A stretch of 64,000 nucleotides of DNA from a virus (IMGVR_UViG_3300021255_002910:16088-80087); one strand, 5' to 3'; counted from the first letter of the stretch, positions 5,330 to 42,753 are shown. Notes: generated from the sequence alone by a model not told the origin. Made by a program: numbers and translations.

Positions 5330-6949
5330 TTAGTCCATTGTCTGCTCCGCTATCAGCGCGTCAATCTGGGTGCTCGTCGGGCGGTGGCTGACGGTGGCGT
5401 AGATGTACTGCTGCTGGCCGTCCTCGTTTTTCTGCAAAAAGCTGGTGACGCTTTCGGGTTTCAGGTAGAGGGCGGGCGAGGCGTCGGGCTCCAGCACGTC
5501 GGCGATGCACTGGGTGAGGGGGAAGGGACGCGGGAACTCGTACTGAGTGCCCCGGAGCAGGTCTTTCCTGATGCTCACGAGAAACATGCGGTCGCGGTTC
5601 TGGGGTATGCCGTAGTCGCGGGCATTGAGGATGGAGGCGGTGGTGCGCTCGCCGCCGGGGAGGGTGAAGCTGGGGGCGAGGAAGTTCTCGTAGCCGAGGT
5701 CGCTGACGGTCTGCATCCACTGGCGGAAGTGCCGGATGTTCTGCTGGTTGATGATGGCACGGACGTTCTCCTGCAGCAGCATCTTGGGGCGCAGGGCCTC
5801 GATGGCGTCGGCGGTGCTCCAGAGCACGCTTGAACGGGTGCCGCTGCCCTTGGCCATGCCCTCGCGCTTGCCGGCCTGGGAAATGGATTGGCAGGGGGTG
5901 CTGTAAGTCAGGAGGTCGATGGAGCCTACTTGTATTCTATCAGGACTCCCATTTCCCTGAAGCCCTGTCTCGGATGCGTGATGTTGCCCGCATAGTGGTG
6001 AGCCGTTGTCAGCGTCACTGCACATCCTTGCTTGTCCGTGTTCAGTGCCGTTAGCACCTTGTCCGTTAGCACGAGCATCACTTTCTCCTTCTGTTCGTTC
6101 TCTTTCATCATCATAATACTTTTGTGGGTTTTGCATGAAGTCTTGCCAGTCGATGCGGGTCATGTCGCCGAGGTTGGGGCCTGCGTTGGGGAAGCAGAGG
6201 CGGTGGGCGACGACGGCGGGCTGCTGGTCGAGGGGACGCGAGGATTCGGGGTCGAACTCGCTCCAGGCGGTGAGCGTCCAGCGGAAGTCGGGGTGCTGCC
6301 GGGCCAGCATGTCGAGGGCGATGGCCTGCGAGTCGTAGCCGGAGCAAAGAGAAATCAGTCGGAAGGGCTCGCGCTGCCAGTCGCGCTCCAGTCGGAACTG
6401 GGGCAGGTCGAAGAGCGAGGGCTGCTCGGTGGGCAGCCGTCGGCCCGTGGGATAGAGGGCTTCCTCGTAGATGTGCAGCAGCACGTTGGCGCAGATGCTG
6501 TTGCCTGCCAGCTTGTAGATCGCCGAGTTGGCGAGGACGGGCACGGGGGCGGTCTTCTCCACCCGTGGGGCGGTGAGCAGGCGGTCGCGGGCTTGCTCGA
6601 TGCGGGCGATGCTCGCGCTGTCGATGCCGTCGGCGGTTTCCGACGGAGAACCGTCGGTCACGGTGGCTTCCTCTTCAAGGTCATCGTCTCCGTCCGTCTC
6701 TTTGAGGTTCATTATGGCTTGCTCGGCGGCTTCGCGAATGTCGCGTGGCGTGGCGCTGTCGGCGAGGTCGAGCAGCCGTAGTTCTTCTTCACAGCCGCTG
6801 ATGGCGCTGTAGGTGCGCTCGGTGGTCTGCATCATGCGGTCGATGTAGTGCTCCGGCACGGCCATAAGTCTTAGGCACTCACGGGGCGAGAGCTTGCGAA
6901 TGTCGAACAGGCGGCACTCGCGGGTCTTCGTGTTAATCTGTGCAATCAT
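5330..6949 (-). CDS. DNA (cytosine-5)-methyltransferase, circularly permuted motif order (X-like, I, IV, VI, VIII). Carries an insert of about 70 aa between motifs III and IV
   Basis: Motifs seen are LISLCSGYDS (I), TYSTPCQSIS (IV), ENVRAII (VI) and GIPQNRDRMF (VIII). N-terminal LSPRECLRLMAVPE/AGNSI resemble motifs IX/X. The track ORF starts at a TTG (7024); the first ATG is at 6949. Confidence 0.75.
   Translation of the reverse strand: MIAQINTKTRECRLFDIRKLSPRECLRLMAVPEHYIDRMMQTTERTYSAISGCEEELRLLDLADSATPRDIREAAEQAIMNLKETDGDDDLEEEATVTDGSPSETADGIDSASIARIEQARDRLLTAPRVEKTAPVPVLANSAIYKLAGNSICANVLLHIYEEALYPTGRRLPTEQPSLFDLPQFRLERDWQREPFRLISLCSGYDSQAIALDMLARQHPDFRWTLTAWSEFDPESSRPLDQQPAVVAHRLCFPNAGPNLGDMTRIDWQDFMQNPQKYYDDERERTEGESDARANGQGANGTEHGQARMCSDADNGSPLCGQHHASETGLQGNGSPDRIQVGSIDLLTYSTPCQSISQAGKREGMAKGSGTRSSVLWSTADAIEALRPKMLLQENVRAIINQQNIRHFRQWMQTVSDLGYENFLAPSFTLPGGERTTASILNARDYGIPQNRDRMFLVSIRKDLLRGTQYEFPRPFPLTQCIADVLEPDASPALYLKPESVTSFLQKNEDGQQQYIYATVSHRPTSTQIDALIAEQTMD
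5926..6114 (-). CDS. small ORF nested out of frame inside the methyltransferase insert; member of the ILIEY C-terminal paralog family
   Basis: Ends ...HHYAGNITHPRQGFREMGVLIEYK, sharing the motif with 7168..7353 and 7761..7949. It sits exactly in the low-complexity insertion of the methyltransferase. Confidence 0.35.
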   Translation of the reverse strand: MMMKENEQKEKVMLVLTDKVLTALNTDKQGCAVTLTTAHHYAGNITHPRQGFREMGVLIEYK

Positions 6950-7167
6950 AATGTTATCGTTTGTTTGATGTTTATTGTCAGGGTCGTGGGGGGGTAGAAA
7001 TGAACCAGCAGGCTCCTGCGTCAATGCGGGTGGTGATGGTTCCTGCCTCGTTGGTGCGAGTCAGTTGGTTGTATGCGTCTATCCAGAGGTAGGGTCGGCA
7101 GATTTTGCCGTCCATTATCATGCGTCTGAGCCTCACTCCTCCTGTTACCATAATCCGTTTAATCTGT

Positions 7168-7353
7168 TTAATCCGTTGTTTCGTTCTGTTCGTATTCTAT
7201 GAGTATCTTCGGGCAGTTGCCGTGTCCTGCGGTGTGGCAGGGGGCGATGCCGTGGGGGCTGACCACGATGCCGTCTTGCGAGGTGGAGAGCCGTCCGGCG
7301 TAGATGACGCGCCGTGACCGCTTGTGGGGGGTAGGAATTATCGTTCTATTCAT
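7168..7353 (-). CDS. small protein, ILIEY-family paralog (61 aa)
   Basis: C-terminus ...PCHTAGHGNCPKILIEYEQNETTD. Its ATG overlaps the upstream stop (CAATGAATAG). Confidence 0.4.
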   Translation of the reverse strand: MNRTIIPTPHKRSRRVIYAGRLSTSQDGIVVSPHGIAPCHTAGHGNCPKILIEYEQNETTD

Positions 7354-7547
7354 TGTATTCTATGAGTATTGCGGTCGATGGGAAGTGGCCGAGTGAGTAG
7401 TAGTTCGTCCATCCGTCCTTCCACATGCGGGACGTAAGGCAGGATGCGGTGTCGGCAGCGCACACGTTGACCGGCCAGAGCGATTTCTGCCCCCCCCCGT
7501 AGCGGCTGGTCGGCTATGGTGGTGATGGCGAGGCGGGGCTGTTTCAT
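7350..7547 (-). CDS. small protein, ILIEY-family paralog interrupted by a frameshift at a G9 tract
   Basis: A C9 run lies at 7491-7499 on the plus strand. With G8 the reading continues ...YYSLGHFPSTAILIEYNE*, matching the paralogs. Confidence 0.35.
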   Translation of the reverse strand: MKQPRLAITTIADQPLRGGAEIALAGQRVRCRHRILPYVPHVEGRMDELLLTRPLPIDRNTHRIQ

Positions 7548-7768
7548 TTTACTTCTATCCATACGAGGGTATCTTTCTGAACGGTGGTGATGGTGCCGCA
7601 CAGCTGACTGCGCAACTCCAGGAACTGCCGTCCGCGTCCGTGCAGGGCACGGCGCGAGCGGGGTGCCTCGGGGTCGCGGCTGACGAGGGCGCAGTATCGG
7701 GCGCTGACCGTGGGGTCGGCTGCCAGGCGCGGGTAGCTGTCGATGATGGGTAGCGGCGATTTATTCAT
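7544..7768 (-). CDS. small hypothetical protein (74 aa), coupled
   Basis: ATG embedded in the upstream GAATATGAATAA. C-terminus ...TLVWIEVK. Confidence 0.35.
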   Translation of the reverse strand: MNKSPLPIIDSYPRLAADPTVSARYCALVSRDPEAPRSRRALHGRGRQFLELRSQLCGTITTVQKDTLVWIEVK

Positions 7769-7949
7769 ATTCTATCATCAAATAGTTGTCCTTATCAAAC
7801 GTGGTCACTGCGTTGCTGATGCCGTCGGGCCGTGGGGCGAGCTTGTGCTCCGAAAAGTGCAGATGCCCACCCCGGTCGCCGTAGATGCGGCGCTTGGCCT
7901 TCAGTGCTTCGGTGCGCTCGCGGCGCAGAATGGCGTAGTGGTTAGTCAT
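7761..7949 (-). CDS. small protein, ILIEY-family paralog (62 aa)
   Basis: Internal ATG just after the stop of 7955..8206. Ends ...HFSEHKLAPRPDGISNAVTTFDKDNYLMIEYE. Confidence 0.4.
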   Translation of the reverse strand: MTNHYAILRRERTEALKAKRRIYGDRGGHLHFSEHKLAPRPDGISNAVTTFDKDNYLMIEYE

Positions 7950-7954
7950 TTCGT

Positions 7955-8206
7955 TCAGTTCATCGTCTCCTCCCTCGGTGTCTCGCCGATGCGCTGGTGC
8001 ATGGCCTGACGCAGGGTGTCGGCGAGGCTGTCGGCCAGTTGGCGGAGTTTGGGCTGGGGTGTGTCGCGGCGGTCGGCTATCTGTCCGATGGCCGACACCA
8101 TGAGGCGCTGGGCGCACACCATGAGGTCTATCACTTCTGGGCTGTGGAGGTCGAGCGCCTGACGCACATCGTCCATCATCAGCATCATTTCGAGGTCATT
8201 TTTCAT
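7955..8206 (-). CDS. hypothetical small helical protein (83 aa)
   Basis: Complete ORF with coding-like composition. Confidence 0.5.
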   Translation of the reverse strand: MKNDLEMMLMMDDVRQALDLHSPEVIDLMVCAQRLMVSAIGQIADRRDTPQPKLRQLADSLADTLRQAMHQRIGETPREETMN

Positions 8207-9083: not shown

Positions 9084-10088
9084 TCATTCGATGCCATACT
9101 GCCGCAGGTATTCCTCGCAGACGAAGCCCTTGCGCGGAGAGAATCGGCGGAACTCCGAAATCTGGAATATCTGGTGCTTGTTGCACCATTGCGCCATGTC
9201 TTTCTGCCACTGCGGTATCGGGCGGTGCGGATTGTCGGGGTCGCGGTAGGGCTGCGAGTAGGGGTAGATGTTGGGCAGATGCTTCTCGCGGCACTCGTGG
9301 TTGCGCAGCCACCAGTAGTGCGTCCGTTCATACGACTCGCGGAAGTCCGACTTGCCGCCTATCATTGTGTAGAGGAAGTATTCGCCCCGGTAGCCGTGCG
9401 AATTGATCATCGAGATGGCCCGCTCGCAGTCGGCTATCTGTCCGTGGGTGTCGCAGCCGAAGCGGATTCGGTTCTGCAACCACTTGACCTGGGCGAGCAG
9501 CCGCGCAAAGCGGTCGTTGACGAGCCGTGCGTCGAGCGCCTGGTTGAAGTCCACCCGATAGCCACGGCTGATGATTTTCTCCAACTGACTGACGGCATAA
9601 TCGCCAGCGGCCAGTATGTTGTTGTCCATTAGGACGAGCTTCGTTCGCCCCTCGATGGCTATCTCGTCGCAGTCCATATAGGGTCGTATCTTGCCCTCCT
9701 TGCGCGGCACGACGCACCACGGGCATCGGTTCGGACAGCCACGGGTAAGGAATCCGTAGGCCGTGTCGCTCGGCACGTTGGGGTATATCGAGTAGTCGGG
9801 CTGCAGGCGGTCTATCTCATCGGGCAGTCGGCTGGCGATGTCGTAGCCCGTGCCGCCGCGTATGATTTCGTCGGCATCGTAGCACGTCAGGTCGTCGGGC
9901 GTGAAGTTGAACACCTTCGACACGTACACCCTATCGTAGTGCATCATCGGCAGTGCCCACTCCACCGTGTCGCCCTGCTCCCGATGATAGCGTGCTATCT
10001 TCGTCAGCGCAAGGTTCGGGTAGATGGTCGCGCCCCATTTCTTCTTCTTGGCGTGTCCGTCGATGTCAACAAGTCCTATTCGTTTCAT
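9084..10088 (-). CDS. radical SAM protein
   Basis: LTRGCPNRCPWCVVP matches CxxxCxxC. Start chosen at MKRIGLVDIDGH. Confidence 0.7.
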   Translation of the reverse strand: MKRIGLVDIDGHAKKKKWGATIYPNLALTKIARYHREQGDTVEWALPMMHYDRVYVSKVFNFTPDDLTCYDADEIIRGGTGYDIASRLPDEIDRLQPDYSIYPNVPSDTAYGFLTRGCPNRCPWCVVPRKEGKIRPYMDCDEIAIEGRTKLVLMDNNILAAGDYAVSQLEKIISRGYRVDFNQALDARLVNDRFARLLAQVKWLQNRIRFGCDTHGQIADCERAISMINSHGYRGEYFLYTMIGGKSDFRESYERTHYWWLRNHECREKHLPNIYPYSQPYRDPDNPHRPIPQWQKDMAQWCNKHQIFQISEFRRFSPRKGFVCEEYLRQYGIE

Positions 10089-10192
10089 TCGTGTAATTCG
10101 TGTTCGTTTCAATTCGTCTCTCTGTGAGAGAAGGGTGCGCGGCGGCTGTGCGTGTCCGCCACGCTCCCTTTTCGGGTCATGCACGGGGGGCT

Positions 10193-10747
10193 TTACGGCT
10201 CCATCTCCGAGCCGCCGCCCTGAGTGCCGCCGCCCTGAGTAGAGCCGCCCTGAGTAGAGCCGCCGTCAGCCGTGGGGTCGGCGGGCGTCTGCGAGGCGTT
10301 GTAGTCGACGCGCTCGGCCTGCTTCTGCAGTGCGAACTGCTTGGAGATGTTGCGCCCTACGGAGGCTGCGAGTGCCCACGTGATCATGTCGGCGGTGAGC
10401 ATGTCGGCGGTGGCCACGGTCTTGCCGGGGTACTTGTCGGGGTGCTGCTGCACGTCCTTGTCGCTGACGCTGCCCGTTGCCGTGGGGTAGAAGCTGACGA
10501 GCACGCCGCCGTCGGCTTCGAGCTGCACGCGGTTGTTCTCCCTGACCTCCTCGATGATGATGTTGGCGGCTTCTTCGAGGATGCTCTTGATTTCGGCTGC
10601 ACGGCTGATGCCGCGTGCCTCAATCTTCTTGGCCAGCTCCTTGTTGGTGATGACGTTATCGACTACGGCCTGTGCATAGACCGAATGGCTGCCCTGCTGG
10701 TTGGCAGTAGGGGTGAACTCCATGACGCGAAATTTGTTTTTCGCCAT
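10193..10747 (-). CDS. HU-family DNA-binding protein (Bacteroidetes HU-like domain) with Gly/Gln-rich C-terminal repeats
   Basis: VYAQAVVDNVITNKELAKKIEARGISRAAEIKSILEEAANIIIEEVRENNRVQL matches the Bacteroidales HU-like fold pattern. C-terminus GGSTQGGSTQGGGTQGGGS. Confidence 0.7.
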   Translation of the reverse strand: MAKNKFRVMEFTPTANQQGSHSVYAQAVVDNVITNKELAKKIEARGISRAAEIKSILEEAANIIIEEVRENNRVQLEADGGVLVSFYPTATGSVSDKDVQQHPDKYPGKTVATADMLTADMITWALAASVGRNISKQFALQKQAERVDYNASQTPADPTADGGSTQGGSTQGGGTQGGGSEMEP

Positions 10748-10836
10748 AATGTTTGTACGATTGACCTTATACCATCGCGAGGTTTCTTGTTGTTTATACG
10801 GTCTGCCTGTCGGGAGACAGATTTTCCTTTTTCCGG

Positions 10837-10921
10837 CGGGGGTACTACTTGAAGGTTTGTTTAAGTTAACTTAAAGCCGGGTTAAAGTTAACTTTAACGA
10901 AGGTTCAAGTAGTCCCCCCTG
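10837..10921. promoter_or_regulatory. nested palindromic locus: outer 17-bp inverted repeat flanking two perfect AT-rich palindromes
   Basis: TTAAGTTAACTTAA (10861-10874) and TTAAAGTTAACTTTAA (10882-10897) are flanked by GGGGGTACTACTTGAA ... TTCAAGTAGTCCCCCC. Confidence 0.5.
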
Positions 10922-11048
10922 TTTTTTCCCGTCGGCAAAGGTAGCCAAAGGCGCCGTGGCGTGGCTGACACCGATTTGCTCCCTGCGACAGCAGCAAAGG
11001 TAATACTTTTATTTTTGGGAGTGGGACAGCCTGCGGGATGGGTGAGGG

Positions 11049-11462
11049 CTATCGGTGGTCGCCTGAGCCGTCGATGACGTGGCGCTGCTGGCGGTCGGCG
11101 AGCTTCGTGAGGTTCTGGCGCGCGATGTCCTCCAGCTGCCAGCCCATGACGGAGCACAGGCCGCTGAGCTGCCAAAGTATGTCGCCGGCTTCGGCCTGCA
11201 TGTCGAGTTCGCGCTGGCGGTCGGCCTCGGGGCCGCTGTCGTGGTAGGAGAGGATGTCGCCGTCGGTGGTGAACGATACCTGCCCCTTGCGTATCATCTT
11301 GGCCACCTTGGAGGCCAGCTCGCCCACCTCGCCGACGAGGTTGAGCATCATATACGAGAAGTTTTCCGACTCGGGCAGACAGGTGGTCATGGCCTGCTGC
11401 TGGTACTGGGCGAGGGTCATCGGTGCGCCCTCGGCCTGTGGGTTGTTGTTGTCTTTGCTCAT
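11049..11462 (-). CDS. mazG: MazG-like nucleotide pyrophosphohydrolase
   Basis: LNLVGEVGELASKV and EAGDILWQLSGLC MazG EExxE/D motifs; 137 aa. Confidence 0.8.
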   Translation of the reverse strand: MSKDNNNPQAEGAPMTLAQYQQQAMTTCLPESENFSYMMLNLVGEVGELASKVAKMIRKGQVSFTTDGDILSYHDSGPEADRQRELDMQAEAGDILWQLSGLCSVMGWQLEDIARQNLTKLADRQQRHVIDGSGDHR

Positions 11463-11527
11463 TGCTTTGTTGATGTTTTAGTCGGCTTGCGCCGAGAAAT
11501 TATTCAAAAATTAAGTTCAAAAATTAT

Positions 11528-12687
11528 TCATTCTTCATTTCCCGAAAAGTCGGGCAGGCTGACCTTGAAGCGCTGCTGGAGCCACTCGCGGTAGTCGCGG
11601 ATGCCGAAGAGGTCGGCGTCGTTGCTGGCCAGCCACTGCTCCCACTTCTTCTGCCGCTCAAAGAACACCTCGCGGAAGAACCACTGATATACGTCGCGGT
11701 ACTTGCCGACGGTCTCCACGTCGGGGTGTGTCTCGCGGAAGGTCTGTGCCGCACGGCAGTAGGCGCGTACCATCTTCGGGTATTGCTCGAACTGGCGGAT
11801 GCGCTTCTTGTAGTAGGCCAGCGGACAACACATACAACCGAGCCGCCGCTTCGCGTCCACACTGCCGTCGCGACGGTAGTAGAGCGGATGCACCTGCAAC
11901 GAGTGGCGGTCGATATAGTTGAGCACGTCCTCGTCGGTCCACGTCAGTATCGGGTAGATGGCTTCCACGTGGTTTTCCTCCGTCTTGGCACCGTAGTAGC
12001 GGCACTCCGTAGGCTCGTCGTAACGCTTGTCGCGCTTGGTCGATTCGGCCTTGCGTATGCCCATCACGGCCTTGTCGAGGGTCTTGTGCTCCTTCAGATA
12101 GCGGCAGCAGTGGCGCTGGAATCGGTTGGGCATACCCATCTCGGCTATCAGCTGGAAGAACGACTTTTCGGGGCGCACCGTTTCTACCCCCCCACTTGGC
12201 GGATGTGGCCTGCCGTGCCCGGCGGGTCGATGGTGGTCGAGTGGTAGATGGCACGGTAGCGGATGCCGCTGCGCCGCGTGAGGTCGAGGATGACGTCGCT
12301 GTCCTTGCCGCCGCTGTAGCCCACTTCTATCTCGCCCCGGTAGCCACGGGCCACGCTCTGCAGCAGCTGTATGGCCTGCTGCTCCTTGTGCGAGAGGCGG
12401 TCGGCATCGGTGACGGCGAAGGTGTCAGCCGGCTCGTAGTCCTTGCCCGGTCGGCAGGCTTCCACCGTCATGCCGTCGGTGGAGAGCATACGGTGCTTGC
12501 GGTGGCCGCTGATGCGGAAGCGCAGGACGTCGAAGCACTGCGAGGTGCCCGTGCGTCCGTACTTGTCGCAGTGGATGAGCCACGTCTGTCCCCGTCGGGG
12601 CACTATCATGTGCTCACGGTGCAGCTCCAGCCGGTACTGCTCGCCCCTGTAGCCGATGGTGATGTCTATCTGTTGCTGAAAGTACAT
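11528..12687 (-). CDS. PAPS-reductase/PP-loop ATP pyrophosphatase family protein (DndC/CysH-like), split by a frameshift at a G7 tract
   Basis: N-terminal part (12184..12687) has GYSGGKDSDV. C-terminal part (11528..12178) has GIRKAESTKR and ILTWTDEDVLNYIDRHSLQVHPLY...CMCCP. The junction coincides with a C7 run at 12187-12193. Confidence 0.6.
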
Positions 12688-42421: not shown

Positions 42422-42753
42422 TCCGTTGCCTCCTTTCTCGCCGTCGGCGGCACGGTCTGCGGGTTCAGCCGTATCAGCTCTTTCTTCAGTGCGTAGAAGA
42501 TGCCGCCTATGCTTCGGCACTCCTCGCGCAGTGTCTCTCGGCGGCGGTTGATGTTGCCCAGCTCGATGTTCAGTTCTGCCAACTGCCGCCCTATCTCATG
42601 TCGGCGGCGGTTTAGTGTCTCGCTCTCTTCCTTCACCGGCTGCAGAATATCGGCCTGCGCCCGGCGCAGCTGGTTCATACGGCGGTCAAACTCCTGCTGT
42701 GTCTGTACCTGTTGGGGGGGGTATTTCTCCCTCATTTCTTCAAATGTAATCAT
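42418..42753 (-). CDS. coiled-coil protein (111 aa); a G8 tract lies in codons 10-13
   Basis: Complete ORF. C8 run on the plus strand at 42714-42721. Confidence 0.45.
   Translation of the reverse strand: MITFEEMREKYPPQQVQTQQEFDRRMNQLRRAQADILQPVKEESETLNRRRHEIGRQLAELNIELGNINRRRETLREECRSIGGIFYALKKELIRLNPQTVPPTARKEATE

Follow-up and report, generated by a model that had tools for sequence, protein, structure and literature searches.

The locus studied here raises the question of what a series of very small paralogous open reading frames (mini-ORFs) does around, and even inside, a phage DNA methyltransferase (MTase) gene. The window, i.e. the whole stretch of viral DNA that was analysed (64,000 nucleotides, IMGVR_UViG_3300021255_002910:16088-80087), carries six of them on its minus strand, A to F, flanking or within the gene of a circularly permuted C5 DNA methyltransferase (5330-6949). 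A preliminary description had listed four (A, C, D and F); all four are real and lie on the minus strand where they had been placed, and F is indeed nested inside the MTase ORF in a different reading frame, but two more paralogues, B and E, had been overlooked. The genes are as follows, with the mini-ORFs assigned by sequence comparison to the target-recognition domains (TRDs) of C5 methyltransferases:

5330-6949, minus strand: circularly permuted C5 DNA methyltransferase, 539 aa, starting with MIAQ
7761-7949, minus strand: mini-ORF A, 62 aa (..RRIYGDRGG..GISNAVTTFDKDNYLMIEYE), free-standing putative TRD module
7544-7768, minus strand: mini-ORF B, 74 aa (..LCGTITTVQKDTLVWIEVK), putative TRD module
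7346-7547, minus strand: mini-ORF C, putative C-type TRD, out of frame as sequenced; its G8 version reads MKQPRLAITTIADQPLRGGQKSLWPVNVC..GHFPSTAILIEYNE
7168-7353, minus strand: mini-ORF D, 61 aa (..RRVIYAGRLSTSQDGIVVSPHGIAPCHTAGHGNCPKILIEYEQNETTD), putative TRD module
6978-7151, minus strand: mini-ORF E, 57 aa (..YLWIDAYNQLTRTNEAGTITTRIDAGACWFISTPPRP), putative TRD module immediately before motif IX, which is the canonical position
5926-6114, minus strand: mini-ORF F, 62 aa (MMMKENEQKEKV..GCAVTLTTAHHYAGNITHPRQGFREMGVLIEYK), putative TRD cassette in slot 1 (see below), in the +1 frame relative to the MTase and with its own triple ATG

The catalytic core is a single circularly permuted polypeptide with motifs IX-X followed by I-VIII. 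Sequence and alignment give the order IX (RKLSPRE), X (GNS), I (LCSGYDS), IV (PCQ), VI (ENV) and VIII (QNRDR), and motifs I, IV (with the catalytic Cys of PCQ), VI (ENV), VIII (QxRxR), IX and X are invariant in a 49-sequence alignment. The protein belongs to Pfam PF00145 (E=2.5e-38), and its AF2 model, which is confident (pLDDT 79.9, pTM 0.74) and shows the two-lobed MTase fold, has M.MpeI, M.HhaI and M.HaeIII as best Foldseek matches (best E=4e-10, probability 1.00). The same arrangement is found in M.BssHII-type enzymes, where motifs IX-X precede I-VIII within one polypeptide; to our knowledge, no detached array of TRD genes, nested cassettes or homopolymer tracts have been described for these.

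In C5 methyltransferases the TRD normally lies between motifs VIII and IX. One relative, L034 (relatives are designated by L or P numbers), has a single-chain MTase of canonical order in which D-, B- and A-like modules form part of the reading frame at this place. Mini-ORF D shares 54% identity with its residues 287-327, between motifs VIII and IX, and A 36% identity with residues 418-470, directly before motif IX; a B-like module (..NNCLTTVHKDTLLLES) and SQ/RVY-like modules are also in frame in the same protein. In-frame fusions to the MTase also occur: P0030 has a C-type TRD at the N-terminus of the enzyme, E itself is fused in L043, L049, P0024, P0028 and P0034, and L030 has an E-type module in fusion. 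In P0030, L043, L049 and L030 the fused module lies immediately before motif IX. F is tied to TRDs via family resemblance (a T-L-T motif and the shared tail) and its membership of the array. Searched against the PDB (177,635 sequences), a profile of D-like modules gave a sole and weak match (E=0.37) to M.HhaI 237-256 (QGERIYSTRGIAITLSAYGG), aligning to Q237...T250-L251 of its recognition loops; a single-sequence query against the PDB gave no match, and the mini-ORFs have no match among Pfam and PHROG families. AF2 modelling of D alone is of low confidence (pLDDT 51.6), which fits a domain that needs a partner and proves nothing. These comparisons indicate that the mini-ORFs are homologues of the enzyme's own TRD, and not the Cys/His-containing MTase modulators that had first been suggested. 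The TRDs are 55-75-aa modules encoded in separate mini-genes, A-E in tandem upstream of the core and F overprinted out of frame within it.

The mini-proteins are short, all-beta and TRD-like, as would also be expected if they were TRD-derived DNA binders working without a methyltransferase (e.g. by occluding restriction sites), or regulators or inhibitors of host or phage methyltransferases. Such a different function might likewise accommodate L036, where mini-ORFs adjoin an MTase of canonical order that has a variable region of its own. We consider it very improbable, as mini-ORFs and in-frame TRDs can replace one another, and linkage of the mini-ORFs to the MTase gene is tight throughout, with none found away from it in the fetched loci; moreover, we know of no independent DNA-binding activity of a 50-aa TRD without a catalytic domain.

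The C-terminus GH..P..ILIEY, proposed to be common to the four mini-ORFs first listed, holds in part: GH..P occurs only in C and D, but a hydrophobic-IEY tail is present in A, C, D and F. B, which ends in ..TITTVQKDTLVWIEVK, has WIEV, and E includes ..GTITTRIDAGACWFISTPPRP. At the DNA level, the 12-mer GTATTCTATSAG has exactly three copies in the 64 kb (5932, 7192 and 7355), all within this region, plus a copy with two mismatches at 7767; matches with up to two mismatches number 15, against a mean of 5.6 in shuffled sequence, and none of 100 shuffles reached 15. A repeat search recovers the same four-copy family. Read on the coding strand, the motif is CTC/CTG ATA GAA TAC, i.e. L-I-E-Y; the repeat consists of coding sequence together with a translational stop/restart junction.

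More than 50 related phage loci carry such arrays, each with 5 to 14 mini-genes (six in the window, beside or inside one core gene), and the ORF structure, ATG starts included, is repeated from locus to locus at 40-99% identity. Purifying selection is strong (pN/pS 0.07-0.23; 0.066 for the A-like family); since this is selection at the protein level, the mini-ORFs are not a mere by-product of a non-coding element. Free-standing orthologues exist for all six ORFs: 32 for A in other phage loci, 14 for C, those of B in L031, L032, L033, L039 and L049, and those of F in the arrays of L038, L040, L041 and L042. D has 20 short homologues in a database of 5.8 billion proteins and 31 in the fetched loci.

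A cassette array, as anticipated in the preliminary description, is an apt term insofar as copy number and content vary among relatives and bodies are swapped between flanks that include GTATTCTAT(G/C)AG (LIEY), but no integron-like feature was seen in it. There are no inverted-repeat recombination sites at the cassette ends and no attC-like imperfect inverted repeats at the cassette boundaries, the common repeat being a direct, coding 12-14-mer.

The mini-genes overlap by their stops and starts, with ATGA at B/C and two longer junctions:

7761-7769, minus strand: A/B junction TATGAATAA, an 8-nt stop/start overlap of the commonest type in the family
7346-7355, minus strand: C/D junction CAATGAATAG, which combines the ATG of D, a TGA stopping the G9 frame of C and a TAG stopping its G8 (TRD) frame

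The C/D type is general across loci: at these junctions (ATGA, ATGAATAA/G) two reading frames are terminated and the third is restarted. Among 367 junctions, 81% are ATGA, versus 31% in background genes, and in 62%, versus 7%, both other frames are stopped within 18 nt; the 8-nt overlap accounts for 131 of the 367, with ATGAATAA the commonest octamer. Owing to this design, downstream modules would go on being translated regardless of the frame in which the upstream one is read.

Three homopolymer tracts lie in the coding sequence of the window:

7490-7498, minus strand: G9 tract in C (coding strand); G8 or a +1 slip gives the TRD frame, and G10 reads through into D
7326-7331, minus strand: poly-C tract in D, C6 on the coding strand in the window and in frame
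6988-6994, minus strand: terminal C7 tract of E (coding strand); with C6, E would be fused to the MTase, and with C8 its stop would fall on the MTase ATG (ATGA)

C had been read after removal of one G, presumed to be in error. One G must indeed go (the coding-strand G9 is C9 on the plus strand) for the product to end in ..GHFPSTAILIEYNE, with its stop at 7346-7348, but an error is not obvious, as G9 is found in all four assemblies with a C leader (window, L045, L058 and L059, with no switching seen there) and such tracts are systematic in the arrays. Across 29 related loci, 86 coding-strand runs of at least seven Gs lie inside arrays and two outside (0.79 versus 0.008 per kb, a ~100-fold enrichment). 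Near-identical relatives differ in tract length: the E tract is C7 in the window, C8 in L057 and C6 in L043, where a 682-aa fusion results; the D tract is C6 in the window, breaks the frame as C8 in L045, and as C9 in L051 and P0001 keeps it, adding one Pro. At position ~7345 of L002, L003, L013, L022 and L026, runs of G7-G9 leave the ORF intact or truncated, for instance intact in L002 versus truncated in L003. Several modules carry G/C tracts that vary in length among close relatives and in doing so break or restore the frame, or fuse E to the core.

Frameshifts at homopolymers in the assemblies (C in the window, and many in L030-L039), together with the lack of any Pfam or PHROG match, could also suggest that the mini-ORFs are debris of a former single-chain multispecific methyltransferase and the apparent switches assembly errors. 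This reading is largely refuted, and we give it next to no credence: debris would hardly keep the same ATG-initiated ORFs in over 50 loci at such varied identity, under strong purifying selection and with a non-random junction architecture. The tract calls are reproducible, since L058 and L059 are two independent sequencing runs with identical tracts, and an in-frame difference of 3 nt (C6 versus C9) is atypical of sequencing error.

The same tracts might alternatively be sites of recoding, where programmed ribosomal frameshifting or transcriptional slippage at junctions and runs would produce one multi-TRD polypeptide, or TRD-core fusions, and hence a classical single-chain multispecific enzyme. 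The constancy of G9 in the four assemblies, where a +1 slip of tRNA-Gly gives exactly the TRD frame, would agree with this, as would the E-core fusion that hinges on one nucleotide of a C-run and the existence of single-chain fused relatives (L034 and L040). We nonetheless judge it improbable. The shift needed differs by junction (+1 for overlaps of 8, 11 and 14 nt, -1 for those of 4 and 19 nt), and since up to 14 junctions follow in series, full-length product would be negligible. Furthermore, the TRDs of the window precede IX-X-I-VIII, leaving only the last usefully fusable, and the nested cassettes terminate at a stop within the core gene.

Two sites within the core gene bear on how cassettes may be gained and replaced:

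5936-6140, minus strand: slot 1 for nested cassettes, where 68 codons are inserted into the MTase after GDMTRIDWQD and before IDLLTYSTPCQ
6626-6691, minus strand: site of a second nested slot, empty in the window, in the acidic and disordered linker that joins motifs IX and X

Read in the MTase frame, both are predicted to be disordered (AF2 pLDDT <50 for residues 286-335 and 87-108, respectively). At the DNA level, no fewer than seven different TRD bodies are found in slot 1 (window, L043, L044, L045/L051, L056, L057 and L058) between identical flanks that include the LIEY-coding motif; further alleles are seen at the protein level, and the slot is empty in some relatives, the insertion being absent from L030, L031, L033, L039, L001, L048, L049, P0029, P0030 and P0034. 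Its cassettes have a triple ATG and are always out of frame with the MTase, whose own frame is always open. The second slot is occupied in L043 by a nested 78-aa TRD ORF (..GICPTLGARSGGNLMPMLLVEY), and P0026, P0029 and P0030 show the same insertion when read in the MTase frame. A chimeric cassette of L046 joins a D leader, a C-type body and a D tail. Recombination, which the preliminary description had proposed to look for at the motif sites, exchanges cassette bodies between conserved leaders and tails, the latter including the LIEY-coding motif. Homing-endonuclease-like ORFs and an intein are also present at the locus in relatives.

The reading we prefer, and hold to be probable, is of a modular and switchable multispecific DNA (cytosine-5) methyltransferase of the phage, its TRDs being separate polypeptides that presumably act in trans. 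Each free TRD protein would dock to the core by way of the conserved beta-strand at its C-terminus (..ILIEY), and docking of varied TRDs could give a pool of enzymes of different specificities by which phage DNA would be pre-methylated against many host restriction systems. Tracts and cassette exchange may then allow the phage population to vary its set of specificities. With such swappable recognition cassettes, the phage probably methylates many different sites and so evades many host restriction enzymes. Known split enzymes are divided otherwise, M.EcoHK31I by detaching motif IX and M.AquI inside the TRD, and we know of no C5 methyltransferase whose TRD is a wholly separate subunit. This counts against the preferred reading, as do the canonical MTase with its own variable region beside the mini-ORFs of L036 and the constant G9 of C.

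Fused forms (E or C on the core, and L034 entirely fused) also count against the preferred reading: given their existence, fusion in cis clearly works and could be the sole active state. The free and nested mini-ORFs would then be a reservoir of stored alternatives, which recombination at the conserved junctions would bring into the fused 'expression' position in the manner of antigenic-variation cassette systems, and only TRDs fused to the core would be active (at the N-terminal position, as E, or as C in P0030). The variety of types found at the core N-terminus (E-type in L043, L049, P0024, P0028 and P0034, C-type in P0030), the chimeric cassettes and body swaps between conserved flanks, and the homing-endonuclease-like ORFs and intein would all be in keeping with such a reservoir. 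Stored sequences, however, would have little use for an ATG of their own in every cassette, for junctions built to stop and restart translation, or for nested cassettes with a triple ATG that are never in the MTase frame; the tracts in each cassette make sense only if cassettes are expressed, and pN/pS falls to 0.07. We thus regard a reservoir as unlikely, noting that it and TRDs made as separate polypeptides are not mutually exclusive.

More tentatively, and with belief and doubt close to balanced but doubt somewhat ahead, the separate-polypeptide reading may be extended to a 'specificity library', where dozens of interchangeable 50-75-aa TRD proteins would join one permuted core non-covalently, each TRD gene being tract-switched and linked by three-frame junctions, with extra TRD genes overprinted in polymorphic slots in disordered loops of the core. 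Switching one TRD gene would not silence the rest, because three-frame stop/restart junctions chain the genes. If true, phage m5C methylation would have its own equivalent of the Type I HsdS principle. No description of such a system was found in the literature searched.

The closest known enzymes are the multispecific C5 methyltransferases of Bacillus phages (M.SPRI, M.phi3TI, M.rho11sI and M.H2I), described as having one core with tandem TRDs, or TRDs at separated locations in M.phiBssHII (refs 45 and 56-59 as cited in PMC8936443). Going by that account, ours is likewise a phage orphan C5 methyltransferase with several TRDs per core, presumably escaping several host restriction systems, and L034, whose modules are homologous to D, B and A of the window, has exactly the Bacillus-phage single-chain layout. 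All TRDs lie in one polypeptide between VIII and IX only in this relative, and not in the window; there and in most relatives, every TRD has a separate ORF with an ATG and a stop of its own. The separate ORFs, the permuted core, the overprinted TRD, the tracts and the three-frame junctions are differences, none of which the literature searched reports for the Bacillus phage enzymes.

The geometry of F, in the +1 frame inside the MTase ORF, recalls M.EcoHK31I, whose small subunit is encoded wholly in an alternative frame of the large-subunit gene, both being needed for activity (PMC2836561). Unlike F, this beta subunit carries motif IX instead of a TRD and is one fixed gene with no polymorphic slot. 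M.AquI, and artificial fragment complementation of M.SssI, M.HhaI and M.BspRI, show that splits in the variable region are tolerated with non-covalent reassembly (PMC3404938). An AquI-like pair of genes (I-VIII and IX-X) is present in L035, L037, L038, L040, L041 and L042, with the array exactly between the two. However, M.AquI consists of two pieces with a divided TRD, whereas we propose three parts here, the third being a whole, exchangeable TRD subunit of which each enzyme has many.

Variation of specificity within a population, by repeats or by recombination of TRD copies, is known from bacterial Type I hsdS shufflons and from Type I/III mod genes controlled by simple sequence repeats (SSRs; 'phasevarions') (PMC7383803; bioRxiv 10.1101/2020.06.18.137471). 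As there, specificity resides on a separate or swappable TRD unit; but those are cellular restriction-modification m6A enzymes with a dedicated S subunit or invertases, and ours is a phage m5C methyltransferase with direct-repeat tandem cassettes and no invertase seen. In phages, G7-G11 runs that generate frameshift subpopulations are reported in Fletchervirus (Campylobacter) phages and in T2/T4 contingency loci (Sorensen et al. 2021, as cited in PMC12823448 and in bioRxiv 10.1101/2025.10.21.683753). Those tracts, as far as these sources describe them, are located in receptor-binding genes among others, with a single tract per gene, whereas up to ~14 occur here in a single 3-4-kb methyltransferase locus, about one per TRD cassette. 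The window itself resembles an SSR contingency locus in its coding tracts in C, D and E, as do the 29 related loci in the enrichment of such runs within their arrays.

In this part of the window every gene is coded on the minus strand. The large ORF there, running from an ATG at 6949 to a stop at 5330, encodes a 539-aa C5 DNA methyltransferase (MTase; PF00145, E=2.5e-38), whose AF2 model (pLDDT 79.9, pTM 0.74) finds its closest structural matches in M.MpeI, M.HhaI and M.HaeIII. Its motifs are circularly permuted, in the order IX (RKLSPRE), X (GNS), I (LCSGYDS), IV (PCQ), VI (ENV) and VIII (QNRDR), and this core therefore starts just past the end of the canonical target-recognition domain (TRD) and stops shortly past motif VIII, where the TRD would start. 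Six mini-ORFs, A to F, accompany it:

A, 7761-7949, minus strand: reported in the preliminary description and present
B, 7544-7768, minus strand: tail ..TITTVQKDTLVWIEVK; additional, from a six-frame scan
C, 7350-7547, minus strand: needs one G fewer in a G9 run, and then ends at 7346
D, 7168-7353, minus strand: previously reported and present
E, 6978-7151, minus strand: ..GTITTRIDAGACWFISTPPRP; a sixth paralogue, recognised by similarity
F, 5926-6114, minus strand: previously reported and present, nested in the core gene

The four ORFs of the preliminary description (A, C, D and F) are thus all found, C only after correction of its G9 run, which lies on the coding strand (plus-strand position 7490-7498). 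When the six frames were scanned for a hydrophobic-IE-Y/V tail beside a stop codon, these four plus B were the only matches with a tail at most ~7 codons from the stop, and all five fall inside one 2-kb region. The DNA motif GTATTCTATSAG has three exact copies in the 64 kb, all at the array, plus a fourth degenerate one, a count that was never matched by shuffled sequence; read on the opposite strand it is CTS ATA GAA TAC, coding for L-I-E-Y. No Pfam family was found for any of the mini-ORFs at E<=10, and near and distant DNA searches of a GenBank phage collection gave no match.

Judged from sequence comparison, the mini-ORFs are TRD modules, as indicated by three independent lines of evidence. 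First, a related phage locus (L034; related loci and related database proteins are hereafter designated by L and P numbers) codes for a single-chain MTase of 530 aa with canonical motif order, which carries TRD-like modules in frame within its variable region, directly preceding motif IX (RIRKLTPRE):

D-like module: SSSQDGVIVSPTGVSPTHSAGHGNCPKILES
RVY/GG module
B-like module: ..NNCLTTVHKDTLLLES
A-like module: ..VYNTLTSVQKDNYLLEQ

Window D is 54% identical to residues 287-327 of this protein, and window A 36% identical to residues 418-470. Second, a profile of D-like modules searched against 177,635 PDB sequences had M.HhaI as its sole match, a weak one (E=0.37), aligned at Q237...G-I-A-I-T250-L251. 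This is the recognition-loop region, with a conserved T-L dipeptide and the Gln that takes the place vacated by the flipped cytosine. Third, the permuted core carries an E-type module as an in-frame N-terminal fusion in L043 (whose core is 99% identical), L049, P0024, P0028 and P0034, and likewise in L030, while P0030 has a C-type module in the same position (..TAILIEYETNDNIMIAQINTKTREC..); such fusions restore the canonical order, TRD then motif IX. Searching PDB sequences by phmmer with a single mini-ORF gave only a spurious match, and an AF2 model of D from a 15-sequence alignment, with four beta-strands and pLDDT 51.6, was too poor to use. The L034 gene (7143-8735), a fully fused canonical-order MTase with four TRD modules in one chain, lies on a low-GC (29%) phage contig and has a (KGY)5 repeat in its linker; it is a useful reference for an ancestral or alternative state.

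The array recurs in more than 50 related loci from IMG/VR and metagenome scans, many on contigs of ~50-130 kb, each with 5-14 mini-ORFs of 30-110 aa that flank a permuted core, either on one side or on both, and end in ..IEYE, ..LEYE, ..QYE, ..YET or ..VEL. Source metagenomes include SRR32995895, ERR12543444, SRR31968892, SRR34543258, DRR595531 and JGI samples (Ga0326512, Ga0326513, Ga0326514), and the core itself has roughly 1,100 homologues. In L035, L037, L038, L040, L041 and L042 the mini-ORFs are bracketed by two distinct genes, one for I-VIII and one for IX-X, an arrangement that exactly matches the variable region of a multispecific enzyme but gives each TRD its own gene. Blast hits give free-standing orthologues of every window ORF (A 32, B 4, C 14, D 31, E 3, F 5), and D has 20 short homologues in a collection of 5.8 billion proteins. 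Pairwise pN/pS inside six orthologue families is 0.07-0.23, indicating that the mini-ORFs are protein-coding genes under purifying selection, and neither debris nor a non-coding repeat. The concern that the ORFs might lack relatives, or that their shared tail might merely reflect a non-coding DNA element, is thus answered by their orthologues and by these ratios. The modules are TRD homologues, encoded by conserved genes that are under selection, have their own frames and accompany a permuted C5-MTase. Counting TRD families by single-linkage clustering was uninformative, A, C, D and F being merged in one cluster of 183 because of shared tails and chimeric ORFs.

Homopolymer tracts are concentrated at the array and variable in length. 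Among 29 related loci, 86 coding-strand runs of G>=7 lie in the array/MTase span (0.79/kb) versus 2 outside it (0.008/kb), C-runs being rare; L030, L031, L035 and L039 have 11-14 runs apiece within ~4 kb. The length of a run at one site differs among relatives and toggles the reading frame: G8 in L002 gives an intact 62-aa TRD, and G9 in L003 a truncated 38-aa product. Near-identical relatives of the window show the same for the E and D tracts:

E tract, C6 (L043): E fused to the core
E tract, C7 (window): E stop 29 nt ahead of the core ATG
E tract, C8 (L057): E stop overlaps the core ATG as ATGA
D tract, C6 (window): in frame
D tract, C8 (L045): frame broken
D tract, C9 (L051, P0001): in frame

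We take these lengths as real since the tracts agree between L058 and L059, which come from two different sequencing runs, and since a 3-nt difference is atypical of sequencing error. The C tract is G9, out of the TRD frame, in all four assemblies that share the leader of C. This module may be either off in this lineage or expressed via slippage, and +1 re-pairing of tRNA-Gly on the G9 run would yield exactly its TRD frame. Two other runs of the window, a G8 (42714-42721) and a C7 (41451-41457), are far from the MTase locus, the G8 sitting in an intact 111-aa minus-strand ORF (..EKYPPQQVQ..).

Junctions between mini-ORFs have stops in two frames and a new start in the third. Over 367 junctions, which pool related loci and are not independent events, the next ORF most often opens with an ATG 8 nt (131 cases) or 4 nt (60 cases) before the preceding ORF ends. 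Starts read ATGA, so that TGA stops the +1 frame, at 81% of these junctions versus 31% of ordinary genes in the same loci, and both other frames are stopped within 18 nt at 62% versus 7%. The most frequent junction octamers are ATGAATAA, ATGATTAA and ATGAATAG. The C/D junction of the window, CAATGAATAG, holds the ATG of D, a TGA at which the G9 version of C ends and a TAG at which its TRD (G8) version ends; a ribosome in the third frame (G10) passes on into D without interruption, a fused form that exists among database proteins, e.g. P0007. These junctions would act as frame-resetting termination-reinitiation sites, and the '..EY(E)' tail would be under a double constraint, from the terminal beta-strand of the protein, also found in the fused modules of L034, and from the embedded start and stops. 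Uniform recoding at junctions was rejected because no single frame shift would fit overlaps of 4, 8, 11, 14 and 19 nt. We also rejected the idea that cassettes generally avoid off-frame stops, letting out-of-frame ribosomes always reach the junction: mini-ORFs have 0.055 and 0.062 off-frame stops per codon versus 0.054 and 0.058 in control genes, and an always-open second frame is seen only in the nested slot.

This slot (slot 1) is a clean 68-codon insertion in the window core between GDMTRIDWQD and IDLLTYSTPCQ, roughly 5936-6140, as defined against L030, L031, L033, L039, L001, L048 and L049. F, which begins ATGATGATG, occupies its +1 frame; the slot, read in the MTase frame, encodes a hydrophilic segment with predicted disorder (pLDDT 33-49, residues 286-335). 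Relatives with 90-99% identical flanking MTase sequence share the leader ..AAGTATTATGATGATGAAAGAGAACGAACAGAAGGAGAAAG, and the 3' end CCTGATAGAATACAAGTAG, which contains the LIEY-coding motif of the preliminary description, is identical in six of seven alleles, the L043 cassette ending otherwise. The bodies in between differ:

Window: F-type
L044, P0023: ..AYNNSAPKDIPWIGAITTTYNRSENRNGWRILIEYK
L045, L051: C-type
L043: ..RRCDNIAGKWQPNGDIRFYQMNERKGGVPELV..
L056: ..LLRYPHGWFKGGITWDATICPTITVSDWANNNFLLIEYK
L057: ..AIGWVRNSFGRGDVKKYVVKDVCNCITTF..
L058: ..NAQKDGTCRCLKATYYKSSVANFLLQTSRGATAVLIEYK

Further alleles are visible in the MTase frame only (P0024, P0027, P0032), and the slot is empty in P0029, P0030 and P0034. 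In every case the MTase frame is open and the third frame full of stops. With the window's own off-frame stop rate of 0.026 per codon, we put the probability that ~200 such codons are free of stops far under 1%, a figure subject to ascertainment bias because the search for relatives selected full-length MTase ORFs. A second slot is present in relatives, in the acidic and disordered segment joining motifs IX and X (L043 609-845; P0026, P0029, P0030); it houses an out-of-frame nested TRD, and the homologous window site (6626-6691) is empty. A third, near the C-terminus, is a small variable insertion before ..QQYIYATV (P0026). Moreover, a tandem cassette in L046 is chimeric, joining a D leader to a C-type body and a D tail. 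Cassette bodies are thus exchanged between conserved flanks, by recombination in leaders and tails, in agreement with the cassette array suggested from the repeated motif. Integron-like attC structures were rejected, as the cassette ends have no inverted repeats.

In the main alternative, only fused TRDs would be active and the remainder would serve as a recombination reservoir, which may coexist with action in trans. However, a reservoir does not account well for mini-genes with their own start codons, junctions of stop/restart design, one homopolymer tract per cassette, and nested cassettes kept deliberately out of frame. We favour a system where free TRD proteins would dock on the core in trans and add specificities, the whole possibly representing a variable anti-restriction device. 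Action in trans is plausible because in classical multispecific phage MTases one core works with any of several tandem TRDs (work cited in PMC8936443), because M.AquI and M.EcoHK31I consist of separate pieces by nature, and because fragments of C5-MTases divided within the variable region come together again (PMC3404938, PMC2836561).

Every single ingredient of the locus has a precedent: multispecific phage MTases for several TRDs per enzyme, split and permuted C5-MTases for the core architecture, M.EcoHK31I for a subunit in an alternative reading frame, bacterial SSR-switched MTases for tract switching, and Fletchervirus phages for polyG tracts in phage. The literature that we searched describes neither arrays of free-standing TRD mini-genes nor polymorphic dual-coding TRD slots within an MTase gene, nor a comparable tract density in a phage MTase locus, and a paper on phage TET/C5-MTases (PMC8256090) does not mention this arrangement. 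If the mini-proteins act in trans, this would be, to our knowledge, the first C5-MTase with a detachable, exchangeable TRD subunit, and a natural proof that addition of a ~60-aa protein reprograms m5C specificity; large gut or rumen-type phages could then hold a broad, fast-varying anti-restriction repertoire in 2-4 kb. The locus joins rare devices, each directly testable (dual-coding cassette slots open in two frames over at least seven alleles, frame-resetting junctions, and dense contingency tracts in a virus), and offers a ready-made library of TRD modules with a tolerant core for building designer methyltransferases.

Concerning the neighbouring genes, an 83-aa ORF directly upstream of A (MKNDLEMMLMMDDVRQALDLH..; 7955-8206, minus strand), not TRD-like and with no Pfam match, is conserved in L046, L048, L049 and L057, where it borders the array on the left. 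A radical SAM protein (phrog_9298, E=9e-96; 9084-10184, minus strand) is coded ~1.1 kb upstream of the array, whose module A ends at 7949; in L035 a radical SAM gene (10633-11631) lies immediately beside the IX-X gene and is thus syntenic with the MTase locus, and the protein could have a part in further DNA modification. A PP-loop/PAPS-reductase-like gene, called from its motif only (..GYSGGKDSDVILDL..; 11528-12687, minus strand), has a homologue adjoining the MTase array in L042 (4858-5721). It seems split into ORFs 12184-12687 and 11528-12178, the break falling exactly at a coding-strand G7 run (12187-12193), possibly a further contingency tract, possibly an erroneous frameshift.

Finally, NUMOD4/HNH-type homing-endonuclease-like ORFs of 188-213 aa, recognised by eye from the motif W..V.G(F/Y)EG(R/K)YEVS..G.VR, are found in L045 (1223-1864), L051 (292-933) and L037 (10358-10924), in the first two in place of module E, between D and the core; these putative endonucleases could drive cassette turnover at the locus. 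An intein interrupts motif IV at the catalytic Cys (STP-C[intein]..N-CQSIS) in L041 (4928-6769), P0041 and P0110, the latter two proteins having Pfam intein, Hint and LAGLIDADG domains besides PF00145.
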